A stretch of DNA of 64,000 nucleotides. It comes from Negaprion brevirostris (lineage: Eukaryota). Shown one piece after another: positions 31,911 through 58,720 of this stretch; position 1 is the first letter of the stretch; each line of letters begins with the position of its first letter. The stretch is from contig JARDVH010000073.1 in NCBI GenBank assembly GCA_030324005.1, positions 85,454,379 through 85,518,378 of the forward strand. Reading direction: 5' to 3'. The notes beneath the pieces were generated by a model. The model was not told the origin of the DNA, ran no database searches, and was given only the letters and a program-made list of their open reading frames with translations. The translations under genes and the position numbers were made by a program.

Positions 31911-32289
31911 ATCAAATGCGTGAAAAACCAAAAACTCTACCCCTAATATCTGATATTCCTCCCTCCTCTAATCATTTAGCCATCACGCATTTTTCCGCTG
32001 TGAATATGATTTCAGTTCTTATAGGTCAATACTTGAAAGGCAAGGCAGCTTTTGTCAGCCTGTGAAAGGGAAAAGGATGGGTTAATACTAGGTGTGACAT
32101 TTCATCAGAATTCAGATCGGCAGTTTTGTTTTGATGATATTGACTCAGCCTTATCCTTCTGAAGCTACTTGCAAATAAAGATTGTTTATTTAAAATATTT
32201 AAATCAGCTTTCCGTTAATCCAGGTAATCCCCTGTCTGCTGCAGAGTGCCACAGGACAGATGGGATAGGACATCAGTTTTATCTCGTCT

Positions 32290-32560
32290 GTGTAGGATGT
32301 GCTGCCAGTTAGGATTATTGCTGATCGCAGCATCTTCCAAACTTGTGACCTCTACCATCTCGAAGGACAGGACAGCAGACAATTTGGAACACCACAAGCT
32401 ACAAGTGCACCTCCATACCCGATATTATCTTGACTTGGAACAATATCATCTTCCCGTCACTGTTACAGCACCAAAACCCTCAAACTCCCTTCCTGACAGA
32501 ACTGTGGGTGCACCTATACTACATGGACTGCAGCGGTTCAAGAAGGCAGCTCACCACCAA
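32290..32560 (+). mobile_element. CR1-like LINE 3' fragment
   Basis: Homologous to 27950-28210 (ggactgcagcggttcaagaaggcagctcaccacca). Confidence 0.7.
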
Positions 32561-33011
32561 TTTAAACAGTTCAATTTCACTCTCTGGACCAGAGATGTTG
32601 TTTGGTTGTTACTAACAATTATCATGGCATTACAAGGGTTTGTTAATTACGAGACTGAAAGGATAGGGTAAGCAAAGTAGACTAATTTCAGTTATTGAGG
32701 AATTAACAATGAAGTTTTGGAAAAGGAGAAGATCAGAGAGTGGAGAAGCTGTTACATTCTTGAATGTTTGAAGCGGAAATGTTGTGCCAGACTTTGCTGA
32801 AATAGGGCACCTTGCAGTGTGCCCACCTTGTTAACTTTTCTTCTGCACCTTCCCATTCAAAAATTTTTTCGCTGTAAATTCCTGGAAGTGTGAGGTGGTA
32901 ATGGTGCATGAGGGAAACAGAGCATCTAGATGAATGATGACATCAACAGCTTATCTCCTTAACTGCTGAGGAGCAAGGATTGAGTAATAAGAGAGGAAGG
33001 GCAGAGTAGAT

Positions 33012-33295
33012 GGGTGACAGAGTGATTAGCACTGCCACCTCACAGTGTCAGGGACCCGGGTTCAATTCTGGCCTTGAGTGACAGTCTACGTGGAATTCTC
33101 CCCGTGTCTGCATGGGTTTCCTCCCACAATCCAAAGATGTGTAGGTGCCCCATAGTGTCGCAAGATATGCCAGTTAGATGGATTAGCCATGGTAAATGTG
33201 TGGGATTATGGGGGAGAAGGTCAGGGTAAATTAGCCAGTGCAGGCTTGATGGGCTGAATGGCTTCCTTCTGCATTATAGGGATTCTAAGATTCTA
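33012..33295 (+). mobile_element. HE1/V-SINE
   Basis: Head, V-domain and gggattcta tail. Confidence 0.82.
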
Positions 33296-34519
33296 TTCCA
33301 GAAAAGTGAACTTCAGTGTGTAAATGCAATATCAAATCAATTATAGGAAGAGAAATATCTATGGAGGAAAAGAAAAATAGGATGAAGTGGGAAAGAAAAG
33401 AGATAGGGTAAAAAAAATCAAATTATTAACATGATGAATAATTTTTTTAAAATTCCAAGATCAATTTGCATTTGTAGAGATGAGACTTCATGTTTAAATT
33501 GTTCACTCTCTGGGCTGGTATTGGTTGGTTGGCTGGTATCAACAATTTTCATGATGTATAAAGGATATTGATATTGTTGATTATTTAATTTTGTGACAAG
33601 TTTACTGCTCAACTGATGTGCAAATGTGACAGCTTCTTGAACATCACAAGGTGGTTAAGGACAAGATGTCAGCTTAACAGAATAATTATCCAAACACTTG
33701 TGCAATCTGCAGTTCACAGGGTCTCTCCTCCTTACCATAAATTGCTGATCGAATTGCATATTAATAATGGCATGTATTGCTCACGTGTCATTATGTTTTC
33801 AACCAATTCTGACCCAATCTCAACATTCATGATTAAACAGGTTAGGTACATGAGATAATATTGGGACAGGGTGGGTAAATGCAATTCAGGTTGTTCATAT
33901 GAAAGGTAAGTGATCTGCTTCCCTGTTGTACTTCTATGTATATCTGGAAACCTTTGATAACAGATTACCCTTGGCTGAAAAAGGCACCAAAGATGCACTG
34001 AATAAAATTCTGGAAATAATTCCCCTTGGTTGATATTTCAGTTAAAGCGCAATTTGTTACCAATTATCTAATCAATCGGGATCAATTGCAACAATATGGT
34101 AGTTATTTGAGTTTAATCAGAGTTCAAGATGGAATTTAACACATGAGTAATACTACAAAAAGGTAAAACCATGAACATTAATGAGTACCAGTTCAGGTCA
34201 GGCAGGACAGCTGGCCTCCGTGAACAGTTCCTTCCACTTTTATCTTCTTGGTAGCTCACATCTTCATGATTTTCCAACTTCCTAAGAGTTAGTATGAAAC
34301 TGCCCTCAGAGGTTTTGCTGCACTGCCTACTGCACGGAGGCCCCCTAGTCTCTTCCCTCAAATTAAATATTGCAGATACTGCCCCATCTATATTACCTTT
34401 GGCTATGTAAGACTAAATCTGTCATTCAAATGCTCCTCCCTTCCACTCTATCACCGACCCTCCTCTAGTCTTTATCTTATCGACCATTGTCGAAAACCTA
34501 TTACATCTCTAACTCTTCC

Positions 34520-34620
34520 TAATTCTGATGAAGTGTCATTGACCTGAACCACTAGCTCTGCTTCTCTCTCCACAGATGCTCCCTGTCCTGCTGAGTATTT
34601 CCGTAATTTTCTGTTTTTCT
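34520..34620 (+). mobile_element. Penelope-like terminus with hammerhead relic
   Basis: ttctgatgaagtgtcattgacctgaacc..ctctccacagatgct..ctgctgagtattt. Confidence 0.65.
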
Positions 34621-35344
34621 TTCTTTTACTTCATACGCTTTTCAGGAATGAGCCTGGATGGATTTTGATCAGACCTTTTTGCCATACAGCAGTTTGTGTT
34701 TTTTAACAAAGTAATAAATTAAATATTGTTTTCTTTGTCTAAACCATGGGGTAAACACCCACCTTTAGTGTTATTACAACTTCACACGTAACTGCCTCAT
34801 TGATCAATCAAGCTGTAAATCATCTTTTCCTTAACTCATCCCATGTTATTTCCCCTAATCAGTTTCATTCTCCAAATAAATGTCCCACCTCTGGACTTTA
34901 AAGCTGAAGTTTCATTAATTGTACCTATTCCATTGTTATTTATGTCTAAAGTGTCTCACTGGCGCTGTTAACAGATTGTGCATAATGTCCATTCAGTGTA
35001 ATTGTCCTTATGTTAAATCAAACTATTGATCCATAGGGTTGTTCATTATAAGAAACTTCGAAACTTGCACACATTGATGAACCTTTGCAGCAAGATCTTA
35101 CTTAAACAAGATGAGCTTCAAATCCTAACAGCTTCGAAGCATTTCTGTTTTGTTTTAAGCTTGTAGTTGTCTCTCCTCCCACATCCATCTTTGCATCTGA
35201 CTAAAGCCCCTTTTCAGGCAAGCATTTATTATTCTTATAATGTTATATTAATTAGCATTAATCAATAATTATTCCACTGACTTGTTTCTAAAGAAATAAT
35301 ACTTTCTAAATACACGAAACTAGGTTCTTGCTTAATCAGACGAT

Positions 35345-35467
35345 CAGGGATTATGGGGAAAAGGCAAGAGAATAGGAATGAGAAAAATATTAGCCATGAT
35401 TGAATGGCGGAGCAGACTCAATGGGCCAAGTGGCCTAATTCTGCTCCTACGTCTTATGGTCTTATGA
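35345..35467 (+). mobile_element. CR1 3' end
   Basis: gccatgattgaatggcggagcagactc..tcttatggtcttatg tail. Confidence 0.8.
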
Positions 35468-35739
35468 AACTTGAAGCATTAACCTATTATTTTACCTCTT
35501 AGAATTAAAGCTTGTTTAATAGTCAAAGCATATTTCTAATTTCTAGTAGGATGCATTCTTGCATACAACCCTGGAAGTCAATGCTTATTTTTCCAGTACT
35601 CTTATCACCTTGTTGTAAACTGCTTTCTTGTGTACTTCAGGTCTTTCTGAACTTGCTAAAATACGAATACAGAGTAAGGATATCTGCAGCTTAGGTTATG
35701 CGTGCCCACATCTCTTTGAATGTTCATAGTATAGAAGTT

Positions 35740-36058
35740 TCATAGAATGCCTACAGTCCAGAATGAGATAATTCGGCCCATCGAGCCTGCACCGATAACA
35801 ATCCCACGTAGACTACAGCCCTGTGACCCCACGTATTTAGTCTGCTAGCCCCCTGATACTAAGGGGCAATTTAGCATGGCCAATCAACCTAACCCACACA
35901 TCTCTGAATGGCAGGAGGAAACTGAAGCACCTGGAGAAAATCCACACAGACATGGGGAGAACGTGCAAACTCTACACAGACAGTGACCCAGGCTGGAACT
36001 GAACCCGGGTTCCTTATGCTGAGTCATCAATGCTGACCACTGTGCCACCATGCTGCCC
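35740..36058 (-). mobile_element. HE1/V-SINE
   Basis: Near full-length copy. Confidence 0.88.
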
Positions 36059-36986
36059 TACTTTGAATCTAACTTTCTGCCTTTAACATTGTGTATGCTT
36101 AGACTCAGGACTATTTTTGAATGACTGTCTTCTTAGAGGCTGTGGGTCAGTTACCACCAGTTTTTCTGTGTTAAGTCATGGATGAGCAACCTAGCTACAG
36201 GAACAAATAAAAATGTTCTTTTTACCCTCAAGCTGTCACTAGATTCAGAATTTTAATAGTGCTTCTGCACCCGATGCTTATGTAAAGGACTTATCCCAGT
36301 GAAAGTCATGACTCAAAGCATGATGTACACAGCAATCAGTGTGGATTATACTTCTATGTTTTATCTTAATCCATTGAAAATTAGTATTACAGTGGGCTGA
36401 TTGAGTACACAAATGACAAACTGTCAAAGCAACCTGCGGGTTTTGGGTTTATTTCGAGCTATAACCCAAGATTGCTTATTCTGCCTCCCTCATAGCCCTA
36501 CAACAATAAATTTCAGAGGAAGAACCTTTCCCAAAGAGCACTATCTATCAACAGAATTAAGAGCTGCTTGATCTAAACCAATGTCTGAGTTCTGAGATTC
36601 CAAAATGAAAATACAGCACGTTAGATTGTGTGGAACATAACCACTTTGCATTACTGGCACAAAGAAGAGGCTGTAAATATTAGAACAGCCCTGCATGCAT
36701 ACATGTCTATTTGAGATATTGTACAAGGTATGTTTCAGCTGTTTTACTGTTTGGCTATTTAAAACATAGTTGTTAATTGCCAATACCAAACTTTCTTGCC
36801 ACTTTATCCATATAATTTTTCAATAGCTGAAGCCCAGAACAAACTCTACCATTCTGTTTCCCTATGATATATGTTGAAAGTTGAGATAAATTCATCTCAA
36901 CTTATTATCTCAACTTTCACACGCAATCTCCCTTAAGGATCCCTTAAGGGATCTTGAAACTTGAGTGGAACGCAGTGCATCTCCAG

Positions 36987-37190
36987 ATGAAGGCAAAATG
37001 CTGCAGATGCTGGAATCTAAAACAAAACAGAAAATGCTGGAGAAACTCAGCAGGTCTGACAGCATCTGTGGAGAGAGAATAGAGGCAACATTTTGAAGGG
37101 TCATCCCAGGTTCAAAATGTTGCCTCTATTCTCTCTTCAGAGGCACTGTCAGACCTGCTGAGATTTTCCAGCATTTTCTGTTTTTGTGTA
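36987..37190. repeat. Fold-back element from inverted Penelope-like termini, with a 9-bp direct-repeat flank
   Basis: ~75-bp arms; inner 26 bp perfect (agagagaatagaggcaacattttgaa / ttcaaaatgttgcctctattctctct); catctccag at 36978-36986 and 37191-37199. Confidence 0.85.
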
Positions 37191-38139
37191 CATCTCCAGG
37201 TGGGTCTAGTAGCATCACTATATCAGTTCTACAAAGGAATGCTCCATTTATCCTTTTCAAGCAAATGCCTAAATGAAATCCATGTAATTAGGTATGCACT
37301 AATCATATAATTCCCTACAATTAGATACTGAAGCCACAATCTGCCCTGAACATGCCTTTGGAGATTAAAATGCAGCTTGTTCATATTTGATTCCTCTCCA
37401 TGTCTCCAAAGCAGCCAATATGTAAGTCACGATAACGGAATGACTTAGATTAAGAGACATTGAAACCAACAAGATTCCTCTATAGTTGTTGAACTCACTC
37501 GGATTCCCCATAGAACTCACAAGTGCTCTCAGAATACCAAAGATATGTGTCTTAAACATAATCTTATTTACCTGCTGCAGAAGGTATGCACTAAGATTGT
37601 TACAATTCTCCCCATGCCTAAAATAGTCATCTGCTGATAGTTGGCACATATATTCTATCTCCTGGATTGTACATTTTGTATCACCCTCTGCAGTACTTCT
37701 ATTGCAGATCACCCTTTGATATGATTTACATAACTTATTTTCTTCAATACAATTTGCACAGCAGGTCTAAGCAATACAAAATCTAAACTAGTTATAGCCC
37801 TTGGGTGCTATTTCACCACAGTCATGGAAGTCATATGAGCACAAATACAGACCAGACCTGAAGCAATGAGTGTGACATCTTCAGGCAACCTCAGAGGAGG
37901 AGCCAGACTGTGGAGGAAGTGCTGAGTTTTGTCAACAAATACTGAAATGTAGATTGATTTCGATTAGTGCTGAAAGCTAGCACATATGAAACTAGAAGGA
38001 TGCAAAGCAATCATTTTGTTGCGATTAATGTTTTCCCCTAAACGAGTTCAGATCGTTTATGATGACACTTTCCATTGGATCCCTTTACATAGAAACACAT
38101 CAAAATTACAGCATGAAAATGGACCATTTGACACAACCG

Positions 38140-38312
38140 ATCTGATTCACTAAACTTAGCTATGACTCTACACCCTAGCTTTGACTGTAACACTACATTC
38201 TGCACTCTCTTGTTTCCTTCTCTATGAACGATATGTTTTGTCTATATAGCGCACAAGAAACAATACTTTTCACTGTATCTTAATAGATGTGATAATAATA
38301 AATCAAATCAAA
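38140..38312 (+). mobile_element. Rex1/Babar 3' end
   Basis: ctctacaccctagctttgactgtaacactacattc..aaatcaaatcaaa, as at 630-715. Confidence 0.75.
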
Positions 38313-41067
38313 TTGTTCAAATCACATTTACCCATTCCCTCCTAATGTTCCTTCAACACTTCTTCTTTCATTCATATTTCCTGTCTTATCTTGAGTATCA
38401 ACATAGTTTCTGCCCTGACTGTCAATCGTGGAAGTAAATTCCACAGCTTTGCCCGCTACATGAAGAACCTTCCCCTGCCCTTGCCAATAAAGCTCCTACA
38501 TTCAATCTTGCTCCTCCAGATCCTCATTTGAGACTAGTTTATGTGAAAATATCTTCAGCTCTCTTGAAGTGACATTAATAGTCTACATTGATATTAAGTC
38601 CACAAGCCTTACAAAATAAAATTGGAGGAACATGTCAGATTATCATGGTAAATTAAAACAGAGAGCTATTAAATTCAACGTTTCCCTTGCAATACTAAAA
38701 TATGCTTTGAATCATCTACTACACACTTGGTTATCGGGATACCCTGAAAACACAGTTCAAGCACAATCCACCTAGCTCCACTTTGATACTGCAATGCTAC
38801 CACTGATCAAGAAAACCTATTTTTATTTAACTAACGCTGATAGATCTATAGCACATGGTATGTTGCACAGCAGGAACAATGATTTTCTTACCTGCCTCCC
38901 TAGGTGCAAGATCAGTGACCAATACAGGTGCACTCCAGTACATGCACACACACACGAGAATTACAGAGCACTCTGAGGCAGCCTCAGAAGGTGGGTGAGG
39001 GATTGTGGGAATCATGAGGCTTGTAACAACTACAGACAAGACTCCCCCAAAACCAAATGCTGGTGTAAAATACTGAGGGACAGGATAAACACTGAAGTTA
39101 GCTGAAGGAAAACAATGACTTGAAATGTCTAAATCAGAAACAACACTAATTATGGCACCTCACCTGTCAAGCAAGGGAATTGTGGGGCAGAATTTCACAG
39201 GTAAGGGCAGAAATTTGCCTAAGGCTGGAGAAGGGAGGTGGGCACCTGGGAAGAGCTTAGGAAATCCTCCAATCAGAAGATTGGTTATGAAGGAGGTAAC
39301 CCCCCTGCTCCCGCCCCCACTTGAAGCCCAAGCAGATTTAGTCCACTAATCACCAACCTCCTTCTAACAGCCAAAAACATTATGGCCATTATGTGGTTGT
39401 TAAGTGGCCAACTAATGGTCTCAACTGGTGCTGGGGTGGATGAGCTGCCGCAAGGACTCGTCCTCACACCCATTAAATTGTAACTTGTGGGGACAGATGG
39501 ATAGGATGCAGGAAAGACACATGTGGAATTTTATGGGCAACCTCAACCTGACCACAAAATTCTACAAGTACAACCGTACAGCTCAGGAGTCATCTATTCA
39601 TCCATTGTGTTTGTACTGGCTCTTTGCGTGAACCATCCAGTTAGTCCTCCCCCCAACTTTTTCCTGAATGTGCTGTAAGTCTTTCAAGTATTTTATCCAA
39701 CTCTCTGGAGAAAGCAAAGAATAATTTATGGAGAAGGAGTTAGAAACAAATTGGGTGTTGAAACAAGGGCTGGGGAAGAAAGATTGCATTAAGAGACAGG
39801 GAGAAAGAGAAAAAGAGAAAAGGGAAAACTAAGACTCTTTTGTTTGCAAATTATATTTTTAAAAAGCACTCAAACAATGAGATTTTTAAGTTCAAATTGT
39901 TCAATTGTTGGTCAGCAGTGTTTGTATGTCTTTGAATTTAAAAGTATATGCTATTAAAAGGAATTTATGGTTTTAATTACTAGATTGTGGTAAGTTTAAT
40001 AGGCAATTAATGCGCAAATCTAGCAAGTTTTGAAAAATCACAGGAAAATTGAAGGTGAGCTACCAATTGAGTGAAACAAACAAGCAGAGTGGCTTAAATC
40101 AACCAGCAAGCTCCAGAGATTTGCAACTCATGGTGTGTCTCTTACTCCCTTGAACTTGCTGTCTGTTTTGTGCATTAATAATGATGTAGATCATTAATGG
40201 CAGCATTATTTTCCATCAGGAACCGACTCATTTTTCTTGCACAACATGTAGTATTAATTATTTGAAAATGAACGCCGAAATCAAGCTATTAATTCCAATA
40301 GCTGCAATAACATGCTGTGATTATCAGATTGAAATTTTAAAACTGGAGAAATATTTAGCATAAAATATTCAGCAGCTTCGCTCAGGTATCTGCTTACATT
40401 TGTGGTTACAGGTAAACAAAATAAGAATCATAGAATTGGTACATCACAGAAGGTGGCCATTTGGCCCATCATGTCTGCACTGGCTCTCCGAATGAGCAAC
40501 TGATCTAGTGCCATTGCCCTGCCTTCTCCCAGTAATCCTGCACATTCCTCCTTTTCAGATNNNNNNNNNNTTTTTGAATGCCTTACTTTATCCTGCCTCC
40601 ACCACACCCTCAGGCAGTGCGTTCCAAAACCTAGCCCACTTGTTGTATAAAAAAGTTCACTTTTGCTTCTTTTGCTCATTATTTTAAGCCTGCATGCTCT
40701 CCTTCTTGAGTGGAAACAGTTCCTCCCTATCCATTCTGCCCAGAGCCCTCATGGTTTTGAATACCTCTATCAAAACTCCTTTCAAACTTCTTTTCTCCAA
40801 GGAAAACAGTCCTAATTTCTCCAATCTATTTTCAGAACTGAAGTTCCTCATCCCAGGAACCATTCTCATGAACCTTTTCTACAACTTCTCTAGCCTTCAC
40901 ATCCTTTCTAAAACTGTGGTGCCCAAATTGGATGCAATGCTCCATGTGGGGCCAAACTAATCACTTATAATACAAATTCAATATAACTTCTTTGCTCTTG
41001 TGCTCTAAACCCCTATTAATAAAGCTTAGGATGCTGCATGCTTTACTAACTGCTCTCTCCACCTCTC

Positions 41068-41335
41068 TTTTTTTTATTCATTCGTGCGACATGGGCGTCG
41101 CTGGCTAGCCAGCATTTATTGCCCGTCTCTAGGTGCCCTTGAACAGAATGCAGTTGAGAGTCAACCACATTGCTGTGGCTCTGAAGTCACATGTAGGCCA
41201 GGCCAGGTAAGGATGGCAGATTTCTTTCCCTAAAGGATATTAGTGAACCAGATGGGTTTTTTGGACAATTGACAATGGTTTCATGGTCATCAGTAGATTC
41301 TTAATTCCAAATATTTTTTATTGAATTCAAATTCC
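41068..41335 (-). mobile_element. tRNA-SINE family B, 3' part
   Basis: Reverse complement of tail and core. Confidence 0.85.
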
Positions 41336-41574
41336 NNNNNNNNNNNNNNNNNNNNNNNNNNNNNNNNNNNNNNNNNNNNNNNNNNNNNNNNNNNNNNNNN
41401 NNNNNNNNNNNNNNNNNNNNNNNNNNNNNNNNNNNCAGGATTTAGAACAGTTCTCCCACCAATTCAGCACTTTTGGGAGAATTGCGGCCTTACTTTTCAA
41501 TTAAAATATCCTGTTTAAACTATATTGTCTCTACTGGGAGATTCAATAAATACCTTTTATCTTTGTTTTAGTGT

Positions 41575-41875
41575 CATGGTGGCACGGTGGTTAGCATTGC
41601 TGCCTCACAGTGCCAGGGACCCAGTTCAACTTCAATCTTGGGTGACTGTCTGTATGGAGTTTACACGTTCTTTCCGTGTTTGCTTGAGTTTCCTCTGGGT
41701 GCTCCAGTTTCCTCCCACACTCCACAGATGTGTGGGTTTGGTGGATTAACTATGCTAGGTTAGTGTCAGGGGGATAACAAGGTAAATATATGGGGCAAGG
41801 GCCTGGATAGGATTGTTGGTGGTGCAAACTCGATAGGCTGAATGGCTTCCTTCTGCACTGTAGGGATTCTGTGAT
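41575..41875 (+). mobile_element. HE1/V-SINE
   Basis: Full head to tail. Confidence 0.85.
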
Positions 41876-41914
41876 ATGCCTGCTGATATAACCTGTCCTT
41901 AATACAATTTCCTT

Positions 41915-42130
41915 GCAGATTTCCTTCCCTCAAGGGCATTAGTGAACTAGATAGGTTTTTCCGACAATTGACAATGGTTTCATGGTCATCAGTAGATTCT
42001 TAATTCCAAATATTTTTTATTGAATTCAAATTCCACCATCCGTCATCGTGGGATTTGAACCTGGATCCCCAGAGCATTAGTTGAGTTTCTGGATGAATAG
42101 TCTAGCGATAATACCAATAGGCCATCGCCT
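41915..42130 (-). mobile_element. tRNA-SINE family B, 5' part
   Basis: Reverse complement of head (ggcgatggcctattggtatt) and core. Confidence 0.85.
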
Positions 42131-42589
42131 ACTGCCACCTTCAATGACTTATGCACATATACACCCAAATCTCTTTGCTGTTCCACCCCCCTTTAGCCTT
42201 GTGCCATCTATTTTATATTGTCTCTCCATCTTCTTCCTACCAAATGAATGACCTCATACTTCTCTGTATTAAACTTCATCTGGCACCTCTTCATCCATTC
42301 CATCAACTTGTCTTTGTCCCCTTGAAGTTCTACACTATCCTCCTCACAGTTCAAAATTCATTCAGGTTTTTTTAATCATCACAAACTTTGAAATTGTTCC
42401 CTGTACACCAAGGTCTAGGTCATTAACTTACATCAGGAAAAGCAAGGTCCCAGTACTGACCACTGAGAAACTCCATAATAAACTTACCTCCTGCACAACA
42501 AACATCCATTAGATGTTACTCTGTTTACTGTTTTAGCTAGTGTTAGCTATATCCCCAAGCATTCTGAGCTTCTTGATGTTCCTCTCTGT

Positions 42590-42870
42590 TGTCTCACAGC
42601 CCCAGAGTCCTGGGTTCAATTCCTAGCTTGGGTCATTGTCTGTGCAGAGTCTGAACATTCTCCCCGTGTCTACATGGATTTCCTCCAGGTGCTCCAGTTT
42701 CCTCCCTCAGTCTGGACGACATGCTGGTTGGGTGCATTGGTCATGCTAAATTCTCTCTGTGTACTCAAACAGGCGCTGCAGTATGGCAACTATGGGATTT
42801 TCACAATAACTTCATTGCAGTATGAATGTAAGCCTACTTGTGACACCAATGAATAAGCTTTCAAACTTTA
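42590..42870 (+). mobile_element. HE1/V-SINE, alternative-tail subfamily
   Basis: Tail cacaataacttcattgcagtatgaatgtaagcctacttgtgaca. Confidence 0.82.
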
Positions 42871-42879
42871 TTATCTCCA

Positions 42880-43720
42880 GATTCCCACCATCCCTTCCGA
42901 GTTAATTTAAACCCTCCCCAATAGCACTAACAAAACACTGTCCCGACTCCATTTGTTGAAACCTGTCCAGTCTGAACAGGTCCCGTCTCCCCCACATCCG
43001 GTCCCAATTTCCCCAAGAATCTATAGCCTCCCTCCTGCACCATCTTTCCAGCCATGCATTCATCTGTCTTATGTTCCTATTTCGGTGCTCCCAGTGTCAC
43101 ATGTGAGTAACCTACAGATTACTACTTTTAAGATTCTGTTTGCAAATTTTCTACCTATGTCATTGGCACTGATGTGGAACACATCTGCTGGCTATTCACC
43201 CCCCCAAAGTGCTCTGCAGATCAGCTCAGCTCAGTGACATCCTTGACCCTAGCATCAGGGAGGCAACTCAAGACCCTGGAATCATGTCTGTGGCCACAGA
43301 AATACCTACTTAACCCCCTAACATATGAATCACCTATCACTATTGCTCTTCCAGTCTTCTTTTAATCACCCTGTACAGCAAAGCTACCCATGGACTTGGC
43401 TCTGGCTGCACTCCCCAGATCAACCATTGCTCTCACCAGTATTCAAAACTGATAATTGATTGCCAAGTAGGATAAACACAGGTGACATCTACTCTATCTG
43501 CCTGATCCCTATTGACTGCCTGATGGTCATCTCTTCCCTCTATCCCTGGATACTCTAACGCTGTGGGGTGGCCACATCTATAAGCGTGCTATCTACGTAA
43601 CTTTCACCCTTATGAATACACCGCAGGAATGCATGTGCTGCTCAACTTCCAACACTTAGAGCCCAAGCTGCTGCAAGTGACAATGCTTCCCAGGACATGG
43701 GAAGCTTGGTGTACAAGGTA
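42880..43720 (-). mobile_element. CR1 ORF1 (esterase-like) remnant
   Basis: Minus-strand decayed AIVIGDS..FCG..CLP.ARVKDVTE..VGRGFKL motifs. Confidence 0.7.
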
Positions 43721-44759
43721 AGATCCCAATGACATCTCCAGCAATGCTGTAAATCCAAACTAAAATGTCAGTTCACTTCACATCCCTTTGGCGTGCTATT
43801 TATAGTTCCACATAATTTTCTAATAAACGTAAGCAAACACGACCTTATCAATGACATGGGCTGATTGCCAACTGCAATCAAGTAGAAAATAATTTTCACC
43901 AGTGGGACTGATAATAAAGACTTTGGCATTTCATTAAAACTATCCAGTTTTTTTTAAGCAAGTCACATTCAGGTTTATTCCAAAATTGCTCCTTGCTCCA
44001 TTTGTGGATCCTTTCAGTGTTTCTTGAGTCACTGAGTGTTGGAAATAAATCTCCCCTTGTACTTATTTTCAGCTGCGGTCGAAACATGTAATCAGAGCGC
44101 TCAACAGCTCGGGAAAATCACTATTGATTCAAAGGTGACAAAACAAAGTCTGGCTTGCTTCACTGACAATCTATTTTAATATTTACATAAAGGACGACAT
44201 GACAGGGGGCGTAGCAGTGTGTCAGAAAGCTCACAGAAAGAGAGTGACGTAAGGCTGCATAGCATCCATAAAATTGTTCATCGCTTGCTTTTTGTTGGAA
44301 GTTCATTACTTTTGCTCATATGAACTCTGTTATCAAATTGCTATCTAAATAAAAAATCTACCACGTACCAGCGGAAACTAAATGGCAGGCCAGGAATGAA
44401 AGAAAGAACAGAGACCACAGAAGGAAAAGTCAGCACTTTGTTTTGATGGAATTTTAATTTGTTAGTACTGAGGGAGGTACTGAGAGGCATTTTTAATATC
44501 CCATCTGTTTGCCCAATGAGATACCAGGTATTAAAAATCTTAAATTCTGTCAACTGAGTAATGCAGTGAATTAAATTAGCCTTTCAGTTCAGAGACCACA
44601 GTTTGTGTGTCTGCAGGCTGGCGTGCCCGATGTGAACTGCATGTCACCGTGGGATCGTAGCATCAAACTCTACTGAAGTAACACTGAGACACAGAAACAA
44701 ACATGGCTTGAGAAGGGAATGAGGGAAATAGTGTTACACTGGTGTAGTAGAGGTTTTTA

Positions 44760-46636
44760 TTTGTGTAAGGTCAAAGCTGATATGTAGAAGAAAGCCTCAC
44801 AATTTGATACGGACCACCATTCCCCAACCTTGAGGGTCCAGGCCTGCTTTTCGGCAGTGCGGATATTGGACTACTGCCCATCTTAGTGTCAGGTGCTGGA
44901 GGTGCATCACTCACAGAGAGGAGAATGCCGGATGGGCTGGAGATGCCCAGGGTCCACTGGCTGGTGGGCCCCGGGCTGTACCTTGCCAATTCATTTCCCT
45001 TCGGGTTTCTGGTGGACCATGTGCTCCTCCATGGGATGCAGGGGCAGCTACAGTGAGATCCAGAAGCCTAGTGTCTTCTGGCATTAACACTGGTGTGTTC
45101 CCATCATGCTATTAAAGCCTTGCACCATGGAGTTCATACGCTGAACCATGGTGCGGACATCTCCTGATGTGGATATGCCGGCGTTGGACTGGGGTAAACA
45201 CAGTACAAAGTCTGACAACACCAGGTTTTAGTCCAACCGATNNNNNNNNNNNNNNNNNNNNNNNNNNNNNNNNNNNNNNNNNNNNNNNNNNNNNNNNNNN
45301 NNNNNNNNNNNNNNNNNNNNNNNNNNNNNNNNNNNNNNNNNNNNNNNNNNNNNNNNNNNNNNNNNNNNNNNNNNNNNNTCATTGGCCTGGGATTCAGCAG
45401 AGTCCTGGACTCCGGCATCTCTCCAAGTGCTGATTCCCTGGGACATCCCTGCCTCCGCCTGCTGTGGATCTTCAGCTGTGAGGTGCTCACCAGTGAGTGA
45501 CCCAGAAGCTTGCCAACTTAGTGAACTCACTGATGCCAGGTGTGGGTGACAGCTGTGACATATCTTCTACAGTGGGATCAGAGAAGCCCCCCTCTGCACT
45601 GCTGGAGTCCAATGATTCCAAGGGGTGCAGGGATGATCTGGCCTGTTCCACTGATCGGCCTACAAGAGAAGACACATGGCATCAGTGCATTACAGCAACA
45701 CGGAGGGAACATTGAGGAATGACAGCATTTGTGTTGAGGAATCTCACATTTCTCTGCTGCCCCCACTTCACCACACTTCCCCCTCCCCGGCCAGGTCAAG
45801 GGCTCACTTCCTGAAGCATGTGAGGGTTCTCAACCTGGGCATGACTCTAGCTGGCTGTGCCCACTGCCGTCTGTTGTGCTCCAGTTTGCCCTCCAATGAC
45901 ATGGATAGGGGAAGCATAGGTGGCCATTTGAGATGGAGATAAGGTCTTTAGCTCGGATGGAAACTGGAGTATAAGGGGCAGAGCAACTACTGGAAGAGGA
46001 TGGTGATTGTGAGAGGGAGAGGAGGCCTGGTACTGGCACAGGCCAAGGTGGCTGAGTGCGAGAAGGGGTTGGAGGTGCAAGGAGGTCCAGTGGGAGACAG
46101 GGGGGTTGTTCACTTATCCTAGCTGAGTGAACAAGATAATTCATCTTCTTTTGACACTGCTGCCCCGTCCTCTTCTGCAATGCACTGGCATTGACCCATC
46201 CTCTTCTGCAGTGCACTGGCACTGCCCAGGGTTGCCATTGCATCCCACGCAGGGATGGTCACCCTGCTGGACAGCTGTCTCGTGGAGCTTGGGTATAGGG
46301 TTTCCTGCACCTCTCTGTCGCGCAGTCTGGTGAAGGTCCCCTCTGTGAAGCATACTGCTGGCTTCTTGGCTACCATCCCCTACAGTCGTTGTGCAGTGAG
46401 TGCTGGGGAGCTGTTTATATGCAGCCCCACCAGTGCCTGCAGCAATTAAGTCATTATATAGCGGGCGGGTCGGAGGGAACATGCCATTGGTGCAGCGTGA
46501 NNNNNNNNNNAAACTTGTGAGAATAGAAATTAATGAGCCGTAAAATTTGGCCCAATAATGTGCTGGCACCGTCGGCACAAATCACAGCATTTTTGTGCCA
46601 GAACCAACAGCACCATTTTTTGGGAACATTCCTCCC
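44760..46636 (-). mobile_element. PIF/Harbinger transposon remnant carrying the Myb/SANT-like ORF
   Basis: Frameshifted KKPAVCF..ETLYP..PAWDAMA..SASALQKRTGQQCQKKMNYLVHSAR (trihelix/MADF-like); TIR-like end tgggaacattcctccc. Confidence 0.75.
45160..45241 (-). mobile_element. Penelope-like terminus nested in the Harbinger remnant
   Basis: Reverse complement of ggttggactaaaacctggtgttgtcagac..ccagtccaacgccggcat; cut by a gap. Confidence 0.75.
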
Positions 46637-47382
46637 AAGCAGAAAGGGTGAAAAGTGTGAGGGAAAGTATGAGAGTAAGAAAGGGATATTATTATTGTGT
46701 CTATGAGATAGGAATGATGGATGCCAACATTGACCCTAGCAGAATCAATGAATAAGGCAGGTGGATACTGTCTGCGTTTTGGAATCCCAACTGTGCTTTG
46801 AACAAAAATAAATCAATAAACATAATAGGTAAAAGCTCTAGTTGAAACTTCTGAAGTTTTCCATCGAATGGCTGCTTTGAATATCTACAGAATTACAACT
46901 CCGCTGCTTCAGTGTCTTGACTACCAGTATTGAATCAGAGCCAGTGAGATAGATGTACACAACACATCTCACACTACAGAGCTCACTTTTCTATGTATCA
47001 ATTAATTTGCCAACTAGATTTTTCAATTGATGATAAACATGATAATCTAAATGAAAACAGATACAAAAGAAGGATTTTAAATGGACAAGAAGGAGGTTAA
47101 ATGTTTGGATGACTTATTAGTGGTTCGAAATAAGATGGAAATGGGAAATATTAATGTGCACTGCTCCATCTTTATAGCATAAATGCAAGGTTACAAAACA
47201 TGCTTACTAAGAAACCCTATGCTCATATGGCTGTTTTTGTCAAAAAGCTTTCATTTGTGTTCAGAATGGGAATTTAACTGCTGATTTTAACCTGGAAAGG
47301 AAGAGTAACATGCAGAGTCTGAGGTAGGAAGTAAGTGTCTAAAGTTGTGAAAGTCCTGGGACATTTTAACTTCTAGGTCTAA

Positions 47383-47875
47383 TGGGCAGCATAATGGCAC
47401 AATGGTATGGGTGGCAGTGGTCTAGTGGTTCGATTCTGGCCTTGGGAGACTNNNNNNNNNNNNNNNNNNNNNNNNNNNNNNNNNNNNNNNNNNNNNNNNN
47501 NNNNNNNNNNNNNNNNNNNNNNNNNNNNNNNNNNNNNNNNNNNNNNNNNNNGTGGCAGTGGTATAGTGGTTCGATTCTGGCCTTGGGAGACTGTGTGGAG
47601 TTTGCGCGCACTCCCCATGTCTGTGTGGGTTTCCTCCATGTGCTCTGATTTACTCCCACAGTCCAAAGCTGTGCATGTTAGGTGAACTGACAACAATAAA
47701 TTTCCCCTTAGTACCCAAAGATGCGTAGGTGGATGAGCCATGGTAAATGCACAGGGTTACAGGGATAAAGCAGGTGGGCGAGAGGGTGGGCCTAGGTAAG
47801 GTGCTCTATCTGAGTGTTGACGCAGACATGATGAGCCGAATGGCGTCTGTCTGCACTGTAGGGATTCTATGGTTC
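47383..47875 (+). mobile_element. HE1/V-SINE (spans a 100-N gap with duplicated flanks)
   Basis: V-domain and gggattctatggttct tail. Confidence 0.82.
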
Positions 47876-49779
47876 TAAATACTAGGAACTGGAATCCCAG
47901 CCAAACTTGGCTGAATTGACATGCTGGTCAGTGAGAAGGAACGGTAAATTACAGAGATGCAGACAACTGTTCATGAGCCATAGAAACTGTCCCTGGCAAG
48001 GTAAGTAATTGGATACATGGGGCGGCAACAAACTGAAGAATCCCGGAGAAGGAACTTTTTAAAAAGCGTCTGCCCCTGAATCCTGTCTTCTGCCAACTTT
48101 CCTGAGTGGGACTAAACACATCAGCTATTAGCTGGAGTTAAAATCTTGCTAGAGCCAAGTTATATTGTCGGACATTTTAATATGAATGAAGCCCTCATCA
48201 GCTTACTGCAAGCGTCCTTGTTGCTCTCAAAAACCCTGCAGTTAAAATGGTGGATGCCACAAACATGCTGGGATTGCTGTAGGTTGTAGTTGGTCAACAT
48301 TTTAACTCAATACTTACACCTTATCCCTACTGGACAGTGAGAGTTAAGGATCGCTACTTATGAGCGACATTACAATCAAGCAAGTATGGTAAAATAAATA
48401 CAGAATTCAGCTTTATACATGAAATTTCCCCATATAACCCCATGTACAATCTTATTATTTTGTTATAGAACTGTTCAATATGTATTTTTAATAGAAAAAG
48501 TTCTGAATATTTCCTATTTATCTGATATCTGAGGCAGCCTTCTCTCAGGCAGATACCTGACTACAATTAAACTTGTAACATACATGATCTATGTTAAAAA
48601 AAAGACACAATGGCAACAACTTCTAATATACCAGTTTCACTTCATGTTCTTTTTCAAGGTCTACAAAGTAAGCATTTAATAATTAATATGAAATGTTATC
48701 AAAGATTTCAAACTTGAAACATCTATCATCCATTCTCATGCTTCTCTGATTTTGGCTGGATGGAAATTATAATTCATAATAAATTAATAAATCATAATTA
48801 ACAAGTAATTAATTACATTTATGACACATAGAACAAGAGGAGGGCATTTGGTTCACAAGCACTTCTTCTCCCACAGGCCACATACAACACTACTTTCCAA
48901 CAACAGTAACCAGAACCAGCTACATTCGGCAGGTGAGATTTGAACGCAGCATATATGTGTGCCAAAAACAAAATGATATCATTCCGAATTCACCAGATAC
49001 TTCCACTTCACATGCAACACAACAGCTAGCTATTTGCAGTCAACTCAAGCATGGCCTTTTGTATAAAGTCAACTGCAAGTTCTGGATGAACATTCCCGAT
49101 CTGAAATATATGGTGAGTTTTGACCAATGCAGATTATGATTATTACTTATCCCTTATAGACAAAACCACCAAACAGCCAATGGAATATTTTTGTGACAAG
49201 ATGTACTAAATGGGAGAGGTGAGATCTACGCCGGAATTTTACTTCCTTGCCTGCCCAAGGCCGATGGAGAATGTCATTCCGCGAGGCTCACCTGTCCCGA
49301 TTCTGGGGTAGGTGTGCCGGGAAAACTCTGGCACTGATCTCGAATCCAGACAATATGAAAGGTGTGTGCGAGTTTTGGGCTCTGCAATAGAGGGAAGATT
49401 CTCATGGAATCCCTACAGTGCAGAAGGAGGCCATTTGGCCCATCGAGTTTGTACCGACCACAATCCCTCCCAGGCCCTATCACCATGTATCCACTGTGAC
49501 AGTTTCCCCCTGACACTAAGAGGCAATTTAGCACGGCCAATCCCCTGGGGAGATTAATATGAGATGGTAGCGGTTTCATTCTGTGCCAAATGGGTTTAGT
49601 ATTTTAGATTTGTTTTCTTAACAGTGTACAGAGCTGTTTGGGTCTATCCTATCCTTATGTTTGTGTGTGTGTGTGTTTTGTGGGAGGGGGAGTTTCTCCA
49701 CTACCCCCCGGTAGATCTCTAACTCTCCTCCTGTCCATTGCTATTTAATTCAGAGAATGCGGGAACAGCCCCGGTGAGG

Positions 49780-50300
49780 GGGGGAGAGAGAGATTGGATT
49801 GAACACAAACTCGCCTGGGGGACCTGATCAAACTACAATAGCCACCGCCCCCCATCACAGACACACACACAGATCCACACACTGAGCCAGCCAGACAGAT
49901 AAAAACATTGCCTGCAAAAATAACAAGGAGCAGATACATGTTGAGTGTTAGATATCTGCAAAGAGCCCACCACACAGCCACACACACACACACACACTGA
50001 ACAAGGAACTGATGGCGATGGGAGATTGAGCCAGAGAGAGAGAGACAGAGGCATTTCACATTTTTAATACATTTTGGATAGAAATTGACTCTGAAATATC
50101 CCGGCAAGCCGCTCAGAGGCGAGGGGAGGGGAGTTTTATTTGCTCGATCCAGGGCTGCCTGGGTCACCTCCACCTTAATCAGAATTGGCTAGCGCATTTT
50201 ACCAAACCGCATTGGCGCAGACTTACCCACTGTAGCTGGTCCGGATCCCTCCGTCTCTGTCTGTCTGTCTCCCAATGAGAGGCGGAGTCACATCCCAGAG
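49780..50300 (-). promoter_or_regulatory. Putative promoter / non-coding first exon within FAH intron 8
   Basis: Locally CpG-retaining; CCAAT boxes at 49793, 50184, 50211 (minus) and 50272 (plus); GGGGAGGG box; consensus donor cagtgg|gtaagt after 50227; acceptor tccttgttatttttgcag| at 49911. Confidence 0.45.
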
Positions 50301-50309
50301 CTGGATAAA

Positions 50310-50709
50310 TACAGCCTGTTTCCCAGCTCTCTCACTCCACACATCCTGTATCCCAGCTCTGTCACTCCACCCAGCCTCTTATCCCAGCTCTCTCACTCCA
50401 CACAGCCAGTTTCCCACCTCTATCCCTTCACACAGCCTGTAACCCAGCTCTGTCACTCCACACAGCCTGTATCCCAGCTCCGTCACTCCACACAGCCTGT
50501 TTCCCAGCTCCGTCACTCCACACAGCCTGTATCCCAGCTCTGTCACTCTATACAGCCTCTATCCCAGCTCTGTCACTCCACACAGCCTGTATCCCAGCTC
50601 TGTCACTCCACACAGCCTGTTTCCCAGCTCCATCGCTCCACACAGCCAGTTTCCCAGCTCTCTCACTTCACACAGCCTGTAACCCAGCTCTGTCACGCCA
50701 CACAGCCTG
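50310..50709. repeat. 30-bp minisatellite (cacagcctgtatcccagctctgtcactcca)n, at least 13 copies, running into a gap
   Basis: Directly visible 30-nt period. Confidence 0.95.
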
Positions 50710-50819
50710 NNNNNNNNNNNNNNNNNNNNNNNNNNNNNNNNNNNNNNNNNNNNNNNNNNNNNNNNNNNNNNNNNNNNNNNNNNNNNNNNNNNNNNNNNNN
50801 NNNNNNNNNAGTGAATACT

Positions 50820-51195
50820 TGCAATCCAGTTGATTTATTGTTGTCACATGTATTACAATGAAAAGTATTGTTTCTTTTGTACTATACAGACAAAGCATAC
50901 AGTTCATAGAGAAGGAAATGAGAGAGTGCAGAATGTAATGTTACAGTCATAGCTAGGGTGTAGAAAAAGATCAACTTAATACAAGTCCATTCAAGTGCCT
51001 GATGGCAGCAGGGAAGAAGCTATTCTTGAACTGGTTGATACGTGACCTCAGACTTCTGTAATTTTTCATGACAGAAGAAGGTGGAAGAGAGAATGTCTAG
51101 GGTGCGTGGGGTCCTTAATTATGCTGGCTGCTTTGCTGAGACAGCGGGAAGTGTAGACAGAGTCAATGGATGGAAGGCTGGTTTGCGTGACGGCA
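50820..51195 (-). mobile_element. Rex1/Babar 3' end
   Basis: Reverse complement of 405-715 and tail (gcagccagcataattaaggaccccacgcaccc). Confidence 0.85.
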
Positions 51196-52679
51196 AATAC
51201 CAGAACGGCTTTCAACTAGTTCATTAAAGGAAACAGCAGACAGACCAATTAGTTCAGTTTCTTTGAATGCCTCTGCAAATATTTGAAACACAAGATGGAA
51301 CAACACTTTCCAGAAAAGGATGCCTGATCCCCTCCCAGTAAATCCCCCTCAGAATTATGTTAGTGTTGTACCATGAAGCTGTGTTTTGCCTCTAGGTTTC
51401 TCTCACTTGAGAGCGACTGATAGTAATAGCTGCTAACCCAACACTTGCTGATTGTCTGCTATTAAACAAAAGGTTTCATACTTTAAGGGGGCTTTCATTA
51501 TCGATCTGAATATTGGGATACCTCAGTGTTGAATCCTGAGCTCTCCTAGTCTACAATGAGGAGAAACTGGAGAATTATTGGGATTGTTTGTAGCAGGAGC
51601 AGATTAAAAATCTCTCCAAAGGGAGGTTCCTGATGAATACAATTTGGTGTTGCTTCAACTGCTTAACCTTCTGAGGAAAAGCAACACACAAATACCCCCG
51701 ATCCCTGTAGGAAACTGAACAAATCTCCAAAAGAGTTCTCCAACCCTGGATCACCATTCAACCCAGACCGTGCATTTAAAACACTATCCCCTCTCTTTTT
51801 GCGACGAGTCTATTTTTTCTTCCCTTTGTACCGCTGGAGGTTTGTTTATATTAAACTCATACCTATTCTTCCTACACATTTAAGCAATTTTCAACCCCCT
51901 GAATGTACAGGCTGCCTTTTTCAAAAGTATCTAATTGTAAATAGAATCTCCACAACTGCAGCACTTGCTGGTTCTGTAAACAGCTATAGGGAGCTGTCAG
52001 AGACTGAAAAATATTCCATGGAAGATAGTGAGCAGTGGTGAGGTGTTTGGAATAGTAGACCGGGTGCTGTGATGTTACGCCTCAGTGATACCAGCCTTCC
52101 TAGACTTCATAAATGGTGTCTCCAACTGGGAGGACAACCACTAGCATGAACAGGTTTTTTAATATTGGAAAAGCAAATAATGAAATAACAATATGGGGTC
52201 CTGTGTTTAATAAGAAACTCAAATGAAGCCACAGCATCTCATTCATCATTCAGTTAGTATCCAATGAACATATCCTCAGTTTATGAAATACTCATTTAGT
52301 TTTTGCACGTTGCTTACTCTACAATGCCTCCAAATACATTTCTCATTAACTACAATTGTTGGCCCACATTTATAAAGCTAAAGGTACACTACTTTATCTT
52401 TCACAATTGCAAATGTTCAAAGCCATAAAAGAAACTGTCAAATATAACTTGCTGATAATGTGCTTCAGAAATAGTTTTTAATGGACCTGGACCTGCATGT
52501 TTGCTTTGATGTTGCAATGTCAAAATCACTATTAAATAAAGTCACCAGAGAGATGATAAATGTCTCTGCCTTGACAACAGTACATCGCATTTTGATACAG
52601 GTATATAGCTTTTATACTGAAAACAAAAAGTGCACAACTGTGGAAAATTAACAGTTCATGCATAATCTATTTAGTTTCT

Positions 52680-53090
52680 TAGAATCTCTACAGTGCAGAA
52701 GGAGGCCATTCACCCATTGAGTATGCACCGACCACAATCCCACCCTGGACCTATTCCCATTACCCCACATATTTACCCTCTAATCCCGTGACACTAACGG
52801 ACAATTTAGCATGGCAAATCAACCTAACCTGCACATCTTTGTACTGTGAGCAGCAGTGCTAACCATTGTTCCACCATGCCGACCCAGTTTATGCATAATA
52901 ATAATGTATAACAGTTTATGTATAATAATCATCTGAAAGACATAAACTGGTTAGGTGCATTGGCCATGCTAAATTCTCTCTCGGGATACCCGAACATGCA
53001 TCGGAGTCTTGACGACGAGGAGGTTTTCACAGTAACTTCATTGCCATGTTGAAGTAAGTCTACTTGTGACACTAGTAAATAAACTTTAAA
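52680..53090. mobile_element. HE1 (minus, 52680-52885, internally deleted) and alternative-tail HE1 3' half (plus, 52945-53090)
   Basis: Recognisable heads and tails. Confidence 0.75.
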
Positions 53091-53334
53091 TTCTAATCTG
53101 TTTTGTACTTTCCAAAGTGTTCAGACTCCTGACTAATTAACTGTGGTTAAATTGTAAACAAGTTGTTCAGTGAAGAAGCACAAGGAATAATTCAGGGAAG
53201 ATAGACAAGGTATGTTTTTGTGACGACGCACATCTCAAATACAGGACGTTTTTAATCTTGCTGAACAGAACAGCATGCTTTCAAGTTTCAGATGGGCCGT
53301 TCATGTTAGCTCCAAGCCCTAAGAGTTAGCCTCA

Positions 53335-54085
53335 AGCTAATCCTTGGTCTGCTACAAAGCTCCACTGAAGTCCAGTGCAAGTTGGAGGAGCAGTACCTCA
53401 TCTTCCGATGGGGCATGTTATAGCCCTCAGGACTCAACATTGAATCCAGCAATTTTAGGCTGTGATCTTTCTTCTCCACTTTGAATCCCTTATTTTATAT
53501 CCCGTACGTTTTTGCCTCAATGCAAAAACGCTCCTTCTCCCTCCGGCCCCTCAGAATCATAGAATCTTACAGTGCAGAAGGAGGCCATTCGGTCCAGCAA
53601 ACCTGCACCAATCAACAATTCCAGCCAGACCCTATTCCCGTAACTCCACACATTTATGCTACTAGTCTCCCGACACTAAGGGGGAATTTAGCACGCCCAA
53701 TCAGCCTAACTCGCACATCTTTGGAGTGTAGGAGGAAAGTAGAGCACCCAGAAGAAACCCATACAAACACAGGGAGAGTGTGCAAACTCCACACAGACAG
53801 TGACCCGAGGCCGGCATTGAACCCAGGAGCCTGGCACTGTGAGGCAACAGTGCTAGTCACTGTGCCACCGTGCTGCCCACCTGGTCTTCCATCTTATTAA
53901 GTTTGCTACACTTTTGTTGCAATCTTTATCTAACAGAAATCTAACAGATTTCTCCCCTCTCTGAGTTCTGAAGAAGAGCCAAACGAAATGTCAGCTCTAT
54001 TTTCTCTCCCACCAGAGGCTGCCAGACCTGCTGAGTTTATGCAGCATTTTGTTTGTTTCATATCCCAGCATCCACAGTATGTTGC
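53335..54085 (+). mobile_element. Penelope-like element 3' end, interrupted by HE1
   Basis: LGLLQSSTEVQCKLEEQYLIFRWGML*PSGLNIESSNF (GIY-YIG C-terminus), then terminus ttctgaagaagagccaaacgaaa..gccagacctgctgag. Confidence 0.75.
53553..53878 (-). mobile_element. HE1/V-SINE
   Basis: Full length. Confidence 0.9.
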
Positions 54086-54288
54086 AAATTAGGGAGGTGT
54101 TTATTACAATTCTAGTCATTTCTGACTGAACAAAGTAAAAGACAACCCCTAACTGTCTATACATAGTGTATTGGACGAGATGTGCCTCCAGTGAACCAGC
54201 TACCCTTTTCACACTGGACTCCACTGGAAATAATACAGGCTATTGAAATATTCTTGATCTTACTTATTAATAGAAAAAAACGATATAT

Positions 54289-54610
54289 GAGCAGCACGGT
54301 GGCACAATGGTTAGCACTGCTGCCTCACAGCGCCAGAGACCTGGGTTTGATTCCCAGCTTGGGTCACTTTCTGTGTGGAGTTTGCACGTTCTCCCCGTGT
54401 CTGTGAGGGTTTCTTCTGGGTGCTCCGGTTTTCTTCCACAGTCTGAAAATGTGCGGGTTAGGTTGATCGGCAATGCTAAATTGCCCTTTAGTGTTGGGGG
54501 ATTAGAAGGGTAAATACATGAGGTTGCGAGGATAGGGCCTAGGTGGGATTGTTATTGGTGCATTCTTGATAGGCCAAATGGCTTCCTTCTGCAATAGGGG
54601 TCCGATGATT
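54289..54610 (+). mobile_element. HE1/V-SINE
   Basis: Full length. Confidence 0.9.
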
Positions 54611-55591
54611 CAGGCTGAACTCGATGATTGCAAAAATAAACACAGTAACCAGCTAGGTTGGCAGCTAATGATAGAAATATCTAACTCTCTAGGATACACT
54701 GGCCATTTTCTGAAACTGAAATAACCTGCCACCATCGGTTCCCACCTACAAGTTATTGAATTGGAATCGTTTAATCATTTTCCTATACATACAACAAAAC
54801 TTGGCCTTCATTGGATTCAGTCTCATCGTGATGATCTGAAGATGCAGTTGACCTGAACTAAATGACAAGGAGCAAATTCATGGCCTTCTGCCAAAAGAAG
54901 CCTTTCATCCCACATGTCACAGGTACTAACAGTGAGACAATTGTTTTCTTCACAGATACCCTCAAAACGGCACCCATTACAGATAACAGCTCTGTCTATT
55001 TGTCATGGCGGCAAACTACACATTTTGACAAATTAATTGACCCAAATTTGTCCTGACAGCAGCCACTCAGCAAGTAATTAATACAATCAGAAATGGCCAT
55101 CGCCTAACTTCAGTCAGTCTTTTTTTGCTTCAACCCAGACAAAGGATTCGGAAATCTTGTTCAGAAAGCAACAAACTGGAACGAGTGCTGCTTCCTGTTG
55201 GCATCCAATACATTTGATCAGAGCTTTGTATTTGCTCTACCTATGGCCTCTTATCCCCAGAAAATGAAAAACAAACTTGATAAAGGAGTCTCCAGGACTT
55301 CCATTTTAAAAATCTTCATGCTGCGGCCTCATTCTAATTCAAATGAAAAGCAGGAGCAGAAATTTTCGATCTAGTACAGGATAAAACCCCAATTTTGTCA
55401 TATCTTCAACCTTTTCCAGATCCTGTATCATCTAAAACGTTCTGTGTACATTTATTGAAAGACATATAATGTGGCGAGACATAGAACAACCAAACATGTT
55501 GCGAACTGGGACTCAGCACCTCCTGAGGCCATTTCCGATCTGTGTCTGGCAGCAGTGGGCCTAATCACTTCTCACACTCCCTTCCCTCAGA

Positions 55592-55935
55592 CGGCACAGT
55601 GGCACAATGGCAAGCATTGCTGCCTCACAGCTCCAGGGTCCTGGGATCAATTCCCAACTTGGAAGACTGTCTTGTGAAGTTTGCACATTCTCCCCGTGTC
55701 TGTGTGGGTTTCCTCCAGGTGCTCCGATTTCCTTCCACAGTCCAAAGATGTGTGGATTAGGTGGATTGACTATTCTAAATTGCCCCTTAGTGTCCCGGGA
55801 TGCGTAGATTAGAGGGGTTAGTGGGGTAAATACATGGGATTATGGGGGTAGGGCCTAGGTGGGATTGTTGTCAGTGCAGACACAATAGGCTGAATGGCTT
55901 CATTCAGCACTGTTGGGATTCTATGATTTCTATGA
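55592..55935 (+). mobile_element. HE1/V-SINE
   Basis: Full length, ctatgatttctatga tail. Confidence 0.9.
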
Positions 55936-56339
55936 TAACTCGGTCTGACAGGCAAGCAGGAAATTTCCTGTCTCATGCTACCCTCCTGTGAAAATCTGGT
56001 TCCTTATAAGTGGAAATCCAGCTCATTAACTCTCCAATCAATGCAAATTGGTTATATATTGAATAATTTTTAATATTATTAATTTAAAAAATTGGTTTAT
56101 TTGCTGCACCAATTTTGAAGTAACAATCCAGGTTTAACTTACCCATCACAACTAATATATATTTCAAGGAGGTCTCCCTTCACAAAGGTTATCAAGATTT
56201 TAATCTACTCGCATTTTTCTTTGTGAATCATCCCCTTTCAAGTAGGTTTAGTAACATTGCTCTTACCTAACCTAAGGATAGTTCTTTGTAGTAGTGAAAT
56301 AGACAAAACACAATAGGACAATTTTCCATGCTTGATCGA

Positions 56340-56780: not shown

Positions 56781-56794
56781 TCATACTCGCATTA

Positions 56795-58584: not shown

Positions 58585-58720
58585 GGGCGAGATTCTCCAG
58601 CCATTCATGCCAGTTGGATTCTCTGGTCCTGCCACAGTGAATGGAGATTTAGCTGAGTGTCAAATTCTCTGTCCTCGCTGACAGCAGTGTTGGGACATGA
58701 ACGGCTGGAGAATTTCGGCC
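58585..58720. mobile_element. Harbinger-type MITE with ~27-bp TIRs
   Basis: gggcgagattctccagccattcatgcc / ggacatgaacggctggagaatttcggcc. Confidence 0.82.

Follow-up and report, generated by a model that had tools for sequence, protein, structure and literature searches.

Within a 64,000-nt stretch of the Negaprion brevirostris genome on contig C73 (hereafter the window), a 9-nt string on the minus strand (TTTCCGCTG, 44369..44377) is flanked by apparent splice signals, which raises the question of whether it is a neural microexon and, if so, of which gene. Here we describe it as a candidate SRRM3/4-dependent microexon of BRSK2 whose inclusion in neurons would add Phe-Pro-Leu to helix alphaC of the kinase and is predicted to dampen or re-tune the enzyme, a reading that we hold tentatively and place a little short of an even chance. 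If it is spliced, the 9-mer would naturally alter, by three residues, the helix that serves to switch SAD kinases, in a gene with links to neuronal polarity, autism risk, and neurodevelopmental disorder.

Re-reading of the minus strand recovered each element of the layout reported by the first-pass annotation. The A (44430) of the predicted branch point CTGAC (44433-44429; a consensus match only) lies 53 nt upstream of the candidate exon and is followed by a polypyrimidine tract of ~40 nt (44388..44428; 81% pyrimidines over 47 nt) with UCUC at -37; the previous AG is at -60, with none between -60 and -2. A UGC motif (-10 to -8) and the 3' splice site TAG occupy 44378..44387, the acceptor AG being 44379-44378, and the 5' splice site GTACGT occupies 44363..44368. 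Relative to BRSK2 the 9-mer is sense-oriented; its length is a multiple of three, it contains no stop in the host frame, and it reads F-P-L in phase 0, the phase of BRSK2 intron 2. The site belongs to a single-copy block (43650..44850), and the interval 43450-45156 gave no match among the other loci compared, in agreement with the original description of the sequence as repeat-free. Its description as CpG-retaining holds in part: the observed/expected CpG ratio is higher around the candidate than in the whole window (0.37 vs 0.27), but the difference is modest, several other unique blocks reaching 0.34-0.42. Two other interpretations of the site were set aside. A recursive splice site, or AG|GT ratchet point, has a donor GT directly after the acceptor AG, and here TT follows; an alternative last exon (FPLVRGRFFI-stop, with AATAAA ~390 nt on) relies on a hexamer that is expected by chance.

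This layout resembles that of SRRM3/4 (eMIC) microexons, which, in the available parts of two reports (10.1101/2024.09.17.613571; PMC12626424), are 3-27 nt long and a multiple of three. The available part of the former (10.1101/2024.09.17.613571) further describes a branch point and tract remote from the AG, together with a strong donor and a UCUC...UGC enhancer, with UGC found in about three quarters of SRRM3/4 microexons and 30 cryptic microexons serving as controls. The candidate shares the distant branch point and tract, the UCUC...UGC before the AG, the good donor, and a neuronal host gene, and the SRRM3/4-type architecture first proposed is both present and rare. Unlike members of this class, it has no counterpart in the zebrafish supplements searched, which list no brsk gene, it differs by a substitution between close relatives, and the insertion would lie in a core catalytic helix rather than in a surface loop. 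It is at best a plausible, unproven addition to the known class, for which we see roughly even odds. Two loci encoding SRRM_C, the domain of the SRRM3/4 regulators, are present in this genome.

Host gene and assembly context

The first-pass annotation had placed the 9-mer in FAH (fumarylacetoacetase) as a phase-1 microexon of intron 8 that adds VSA to the NDWSARD motif. An FAH exon 9 (131 nt; ARDIQKWEY...NPVQ; up to 95% identity to shark FAH over 44 aa) does lie in the window on the same strand (6806..6936), and FAH intron 8 is indeed phase 1, given that exon 8 on contig C164 ends NDWS in that phase. However, this exon is orphaned from its gene and is the only part of FAH in the window. A shark FAH protein searched against the genome gave seven exon matches (an eighth, with E 0.75, was left out of the count), five on C164, one in the window, and one on C146. 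On C164, exons 8 and 10 are separated by only 11.6 kb, with a 9,430-N gap at the place of exon 9. The window's exon 9 sits in an assembly piece bounded by 100-N joins (1176..8798), which we infer to have been misplaced from that gap. The piece (5.4-7.6 kb) fits the gap, and the block carrying the microexon (at least 9.2 kb), which has the 9-mer 37 kb away from exon 9, cannot fit alongside; comparison of the piece ends with the gap edges revealed no overlap, and the gap may in principle represent sequence that was withheld, not left unassembled. An NDWS-VSA-ARD form was found at 0 of 120 ARD[IVL]Q sites in FAH homologues, 97 of which directly follow NDWS, and the change in the 9-mer seen in a close relative (organism B, below) would be Ala>Thr in the phase-1 frame. 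A VSA-encoding microexon of FAH is therefore highly improbable, and the phase of the actual host intron gives F-P-L instead. The remaining late FAH exon (C146:4,047,902-4,048,027) likewise lies away from its gene, as does an exon fitting the BRSK paralogue on C154 (24,438,918-24,439,133), which is not on the paralogue's contig; both are more likely misplaced assembly pieces. Small contigs that bear exons thus appear to end up within unrelated genes in this assembly, which makes host-gene calls from a single window unsafe.

As assembled, the host gene is BRSK2, which encodes the SAD-A kinase. Scanning 444 kb around the window detected kinase exons on the minus strand, and a catshark BRSK2 protein gave 19 collinear minus-strand exon matches from 85.91 to 85.06 Mb of C73 (one weak opposite-strand match was disregarded), so placed that the whole window (1..64000) falls in the middle of intron 2. 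The exon 2 donor lies 80.8 kb past the window end and exon 3 begins 55.3 kb ahead of the window start. Catshark BRSK2 matches exons 2-4 with 100% identity, exon 4 agrees with the BRSK2 structure 4YNZ at 46/46 residues, and the best protein matches are from sharks. Exon 2 is of the BRSK2 type (VTCQK), the paralogue being located on C177; intron 2 of the latter is mostly unreadable (2,030 of 3,435 bases are N), and its readable part held only a repeat-borne look-alike of the candidate. The BRSK2 intron 2 spans ~200 kb, exon 2 ending ATG AAG|gt and exon 3 starting ag|GTA GAA; the intron is therefore phase 0. Distances from the 9-mer are 100.5 kb to exon 2 and 99.7 kb to exon 3; included between them, it would give the reading VLMK-FPL-VEREI.

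The placement of the candidate itself was also considered. The assembly appears to consist of short contigs joined by 100-N spacers, some of them misplaced, and 70 gaps were counted in BRSK2 intron 2, 24 of which are 100-N joins. The candidate's piece (41436-47451) and the next one overlap by 41 nt with 40 identities across the gap at 47452, and 41436..50709 is therefore one natural block of ~9.3 kb. No end overlap was found at the outer joins of the block (41336 and 50710), and an Rfam search of 41436-50709 returned 0 matches at E<=0.1. The GC content of the block outside repeats is 0.44 vs mostly 0.38-0.41 around it; its AT-rich unique parts (0.38-0.39) match the intron, and many 100-N joins in the region are true overlaps. 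In our judgement, it is very probable that the block is natively placed in BRSK2 intron 2.

The same block contains a possible short first exon (50221..50290, minus strand), with GC-box- and CCAAT-like motifs followed by the perfect donor agtgg|GTAAGT near 50226, 5.85 kb upstream of the candidate on the same strand. Its CpG count is within the top 2% of intron windows, and a 30-nt tandem repeat of 13.3 copies (50311..50709) lies beside the promoter-like motifs. Such an exon would likely be non-coding, because the single nearby upstream ATG meets a stop at once; BRSK2, or else a misplaced gene, may possibly have an internal first exon here. In shark BRSK2 records P0430, P0432, and P0561, the protein begins either at a short alternative start upstream of exon 3 or at the MASLQ of exon 5; no coding sequence for the former start was found in intron 2 of this genome.

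Rarity, conservation, and isoform records

How often such a layout arises by chance was estimated with a strict filter that was set after the site had been seen. It demands a pyrimidine content of at least 75% over 47 nt, an AG-free stretch of 43 nt, a branch motif, UGC within 20 nt, a length that is a multiple of three, and a donor score of at least 3 on a simple matrix (not MaxEnt). The candidate was the sole match in 1,118,878 non-N bases, or 2.24 Mb when both strands are counted, and 36 shuffles of a 396-kb set yielded one strict match in total. A first filter had passed 4 of the 5,585 AG..GT pairs in the window, with the candidate ranking top by tract purity. Multiplying acceptor and donor rates gave a factorised expectation per 128 kb of 0.016 at >=75% pyrimidines and 0.073 at >=70%. 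Extrapolated to the 2.7-Gb genome, ~670 strict look-alikes are expected, and ~0.1 on the sense strand of the 850-kb BRSK2 gene. A looser pattern searched genome-wide occurred at 30 sites with a 9-nt spacer vs 29 with a 10-nt spacer, and thus there is no excess at 9 nt; the strict filter, when applied to these sites, passed 1/30 and 0/29, respectively. An F-P-L-like 9-mer pattern had 14 matches genome-wide, the candidate alone having a tract above 70% pyrimidines, and a metagenome scan for the candidate gave a single match, within a bacterial-type reading frame and by chance. The layout is rare, yet rarity is not proof in a genome of this size. A second 9-nt string, ATACTTGTG followed by gtaagt, passes the strict filter on the minus strand of C163 (52,358,837-52,358,870). 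Five dispersed 9-mers of the CTTGATTCT type, with long shared flanks, mimic a UGC-type 9-nt microexon; these copies probably belong to one repeat family, which would inflate the yield of microexon scans in sharks.

Conservation was assessed against one close relative, organism B, which is represented by one sample of DNA-like contigs. Sequence matching 44200-44600 occurs in 5 runs of 2 studies, none recorded as RNA, and neither this nor the lack of more distant species among them counts for or against the candidate; one entry, X1, is identical to the window and may have been the origin of it. Across 43650-44850, organism B differs at 27-28 of 1,201 positions (2.3%) vs 128 of 2,772 (4.6%) in neighbouring pieces, which are partly repeats (Fisher p=0.0005). 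This dip in divergence is not centred on the 9-mer, the 100 nt on either side carrying 4 substitutions in 209 (p=0.43 vs the rest of the block). The branch point, UGC, 3' splice site TAG, and GTACGT are unchanged, and an indel adds 5 pyrimidines to the tract; the 9-mer itself carries one change. This change (CCG>CCA at 44372) is silent only in phase 0 and alters a residue in phases 1 and 2. It favours phase 0 weakly, because CpG transitions such as this one are the commonest neutral change. At ~3% divergence, a substitution within the 9-mer does not resemble what is seen in an ultraconserved microexon.

Protein and splicing records were surveyed for the FPL form. Among 224 BRSK-family proteins spanning the exon 2/3 junction, which include 32 of the 43 BRSK2 records examined from cartilaginous fishes, none has FPL at the junction, and one has an unrelated insert. 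It is important to note that this blank is weak evidence, because the smallest isoform difference recorded is 6 aa and because standard aligners overlook microexons, as stated in the available part of PMC7821500; the annotated BRSK2 records compared differ by events of 6-22 aa located past the alphaC region and by a larger alternative exon. The zebrafish neural-microexon supplements of PMC12626424 contain no brsk gene, the control spock3 being found. No brsk splicing rows occur in the supplements searched of PMC7821500, PMC12626420, PMC4317164, and PMC9303857, and PMC12626424 was the only paper with a positive control; the supplements searched of PMC7935315 hold brsk rows for gene expression and none for splicing. 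In the part of the literature covered, no description of the candidate exon was found. The FPL form would probably be a minor or lineage-restricted isoform.

Proposed kinase effect and competing explanations

The junction was located in the kinase fold with AlphaFold, using the BRSK kinase domain of the whale shark (P0244), which is of the paralogue type but has the same residues at the junction. Folding of the single sequence gave a pLDDT of 43, and the fold based on an alignment of 68 sequences (pLDDT 93) was used instead. In this model alphaC comprises residues 55-70, the exon 2/3 junction falls between K60 and V61, K46 and E64 are invariant, and structural comparison ranks SAD-A 4YOM and 4YNZ highest. 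In the parsable 50 of the 68 homologues, every BRSK-like animal sequence has a spacing of 16 from the beta3 Lys to alphaC, whereas most of the distant ones have 18-32; judged from these sequences, the alphaC segment appears to be of invariant length in animal SAD kinases. A proline precedes the alphaC Glu at -9 (18 sequences) or at -13 (2 sequences) and never at -5. The FPL insertion would place a proline at precisely this distance, five residues before the catalytic glutamate of alphaC. Neural microexons prefer surface loops.

In the proposed mechanism, the weak, UGC-containing acceptor would be passed over by default and recognised in cells with SRRM3/4 expression, and the proline in VLMK-FPL-VEREI, at -5 from the alphaC Glu, would break or shift the first turns of the helix. 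The included form would be expected to have altered, most likely lower, or uncoupled kinase activity, because alphaC bears the Lys-Glu salt bridge and docks the UBA and AIS autoinhibitory elements; we predict a shortened or kinked helix start. For mouse SAD-A, the available part of PMC4686854 reports that the UBA and AIS hold alphaC out, separating Glu67 from Lys49. The host gene of the candidate is one whose activity is controlled through alphaC (BRSK2/SAD-A; PDB 4YNZ, 4YOM; PMC4686854, in the part available), and the candidate form differs from known BRSK2/SAD-A records in the FPL itself. A broader proposition, that cartilaginous fishes possess an unannotated neural microexon which puts a proline into alphaC of SAD-A/BRSK2 and lets splicing switch between an active form and one that is dampened or uncoupled from autoinhibition, we regard as rather unlikely.

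The strongest competitor, doubtful but to be taken seriously, is that the 9-mer is a chance or cryptic site, in which a very large intron happens to contain a pyrimidine microsatellite-like tract with an AG and then a donor-like hexamer after it, spliced never or almost never; the 1.2-kb block that evolves slowly would then be something else, e.g. an enhancer. The hundreds of look-alikes expected genome-wide, the post hoc setting of the filter, and the equal counts of 9- and 10-nt sites all fit such an origin, as do the blank among the 224 proteins, the substitution within a 9-mer on which conservation is not centred, and the lack of a proline at the FPL helix position in all 50 homologues. 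What it explains less readily is that so few sites of this kind are expected per window, that the ten-nt control sites all fail the strict filter even after preselection, and that organism B keeps all splice signals at a site whose strand, length, and frame all fit BRSK2.

A different explanation, which we consider unlikely, is that the microexon is real but belongs to another context, either as a 5'-UTR exon spliced from the ~50230 start into BRSK2 exon 3 or as part of a 9.3-kb block misplaced from some other gene. The true adjacency of the two pieces puts the promoter-like motifs and the perfect donor upstream of the candidate on the same strand, some shark BRSK2 records begin downstream of exon 2, and misplacement has precedents in the exon contigs of FAH (2/7 matches) and of the BRSK paralogue (one match, on C154) as well as a possible sign in the higher non-repeat GC of the block. 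Yet all 19 of 19 BRSK2 exon matches are correctly placed, the AT-rich unique parts of the block match the intron in which many 100-N joins are true overlaps, and the silent change in the 9-mer favours phase 0.

Variation elsewhere in BRSK2 was also observed. The shark gene contains a long Pro/Ser/Gln-rich in-frame stretch before VTPHPSPRGSP (C73, ~85.107 Mb), which is common to bird, reptile, fish, and some mammal records. In Poecilia latipinna BRSK2-like X1 (P0154), the exon 1/2 junction, within the glycine-rich loop, carries 9 additional residues (VRKPGGRRG), possibly a teleost mini-exon or an annotation artefact.
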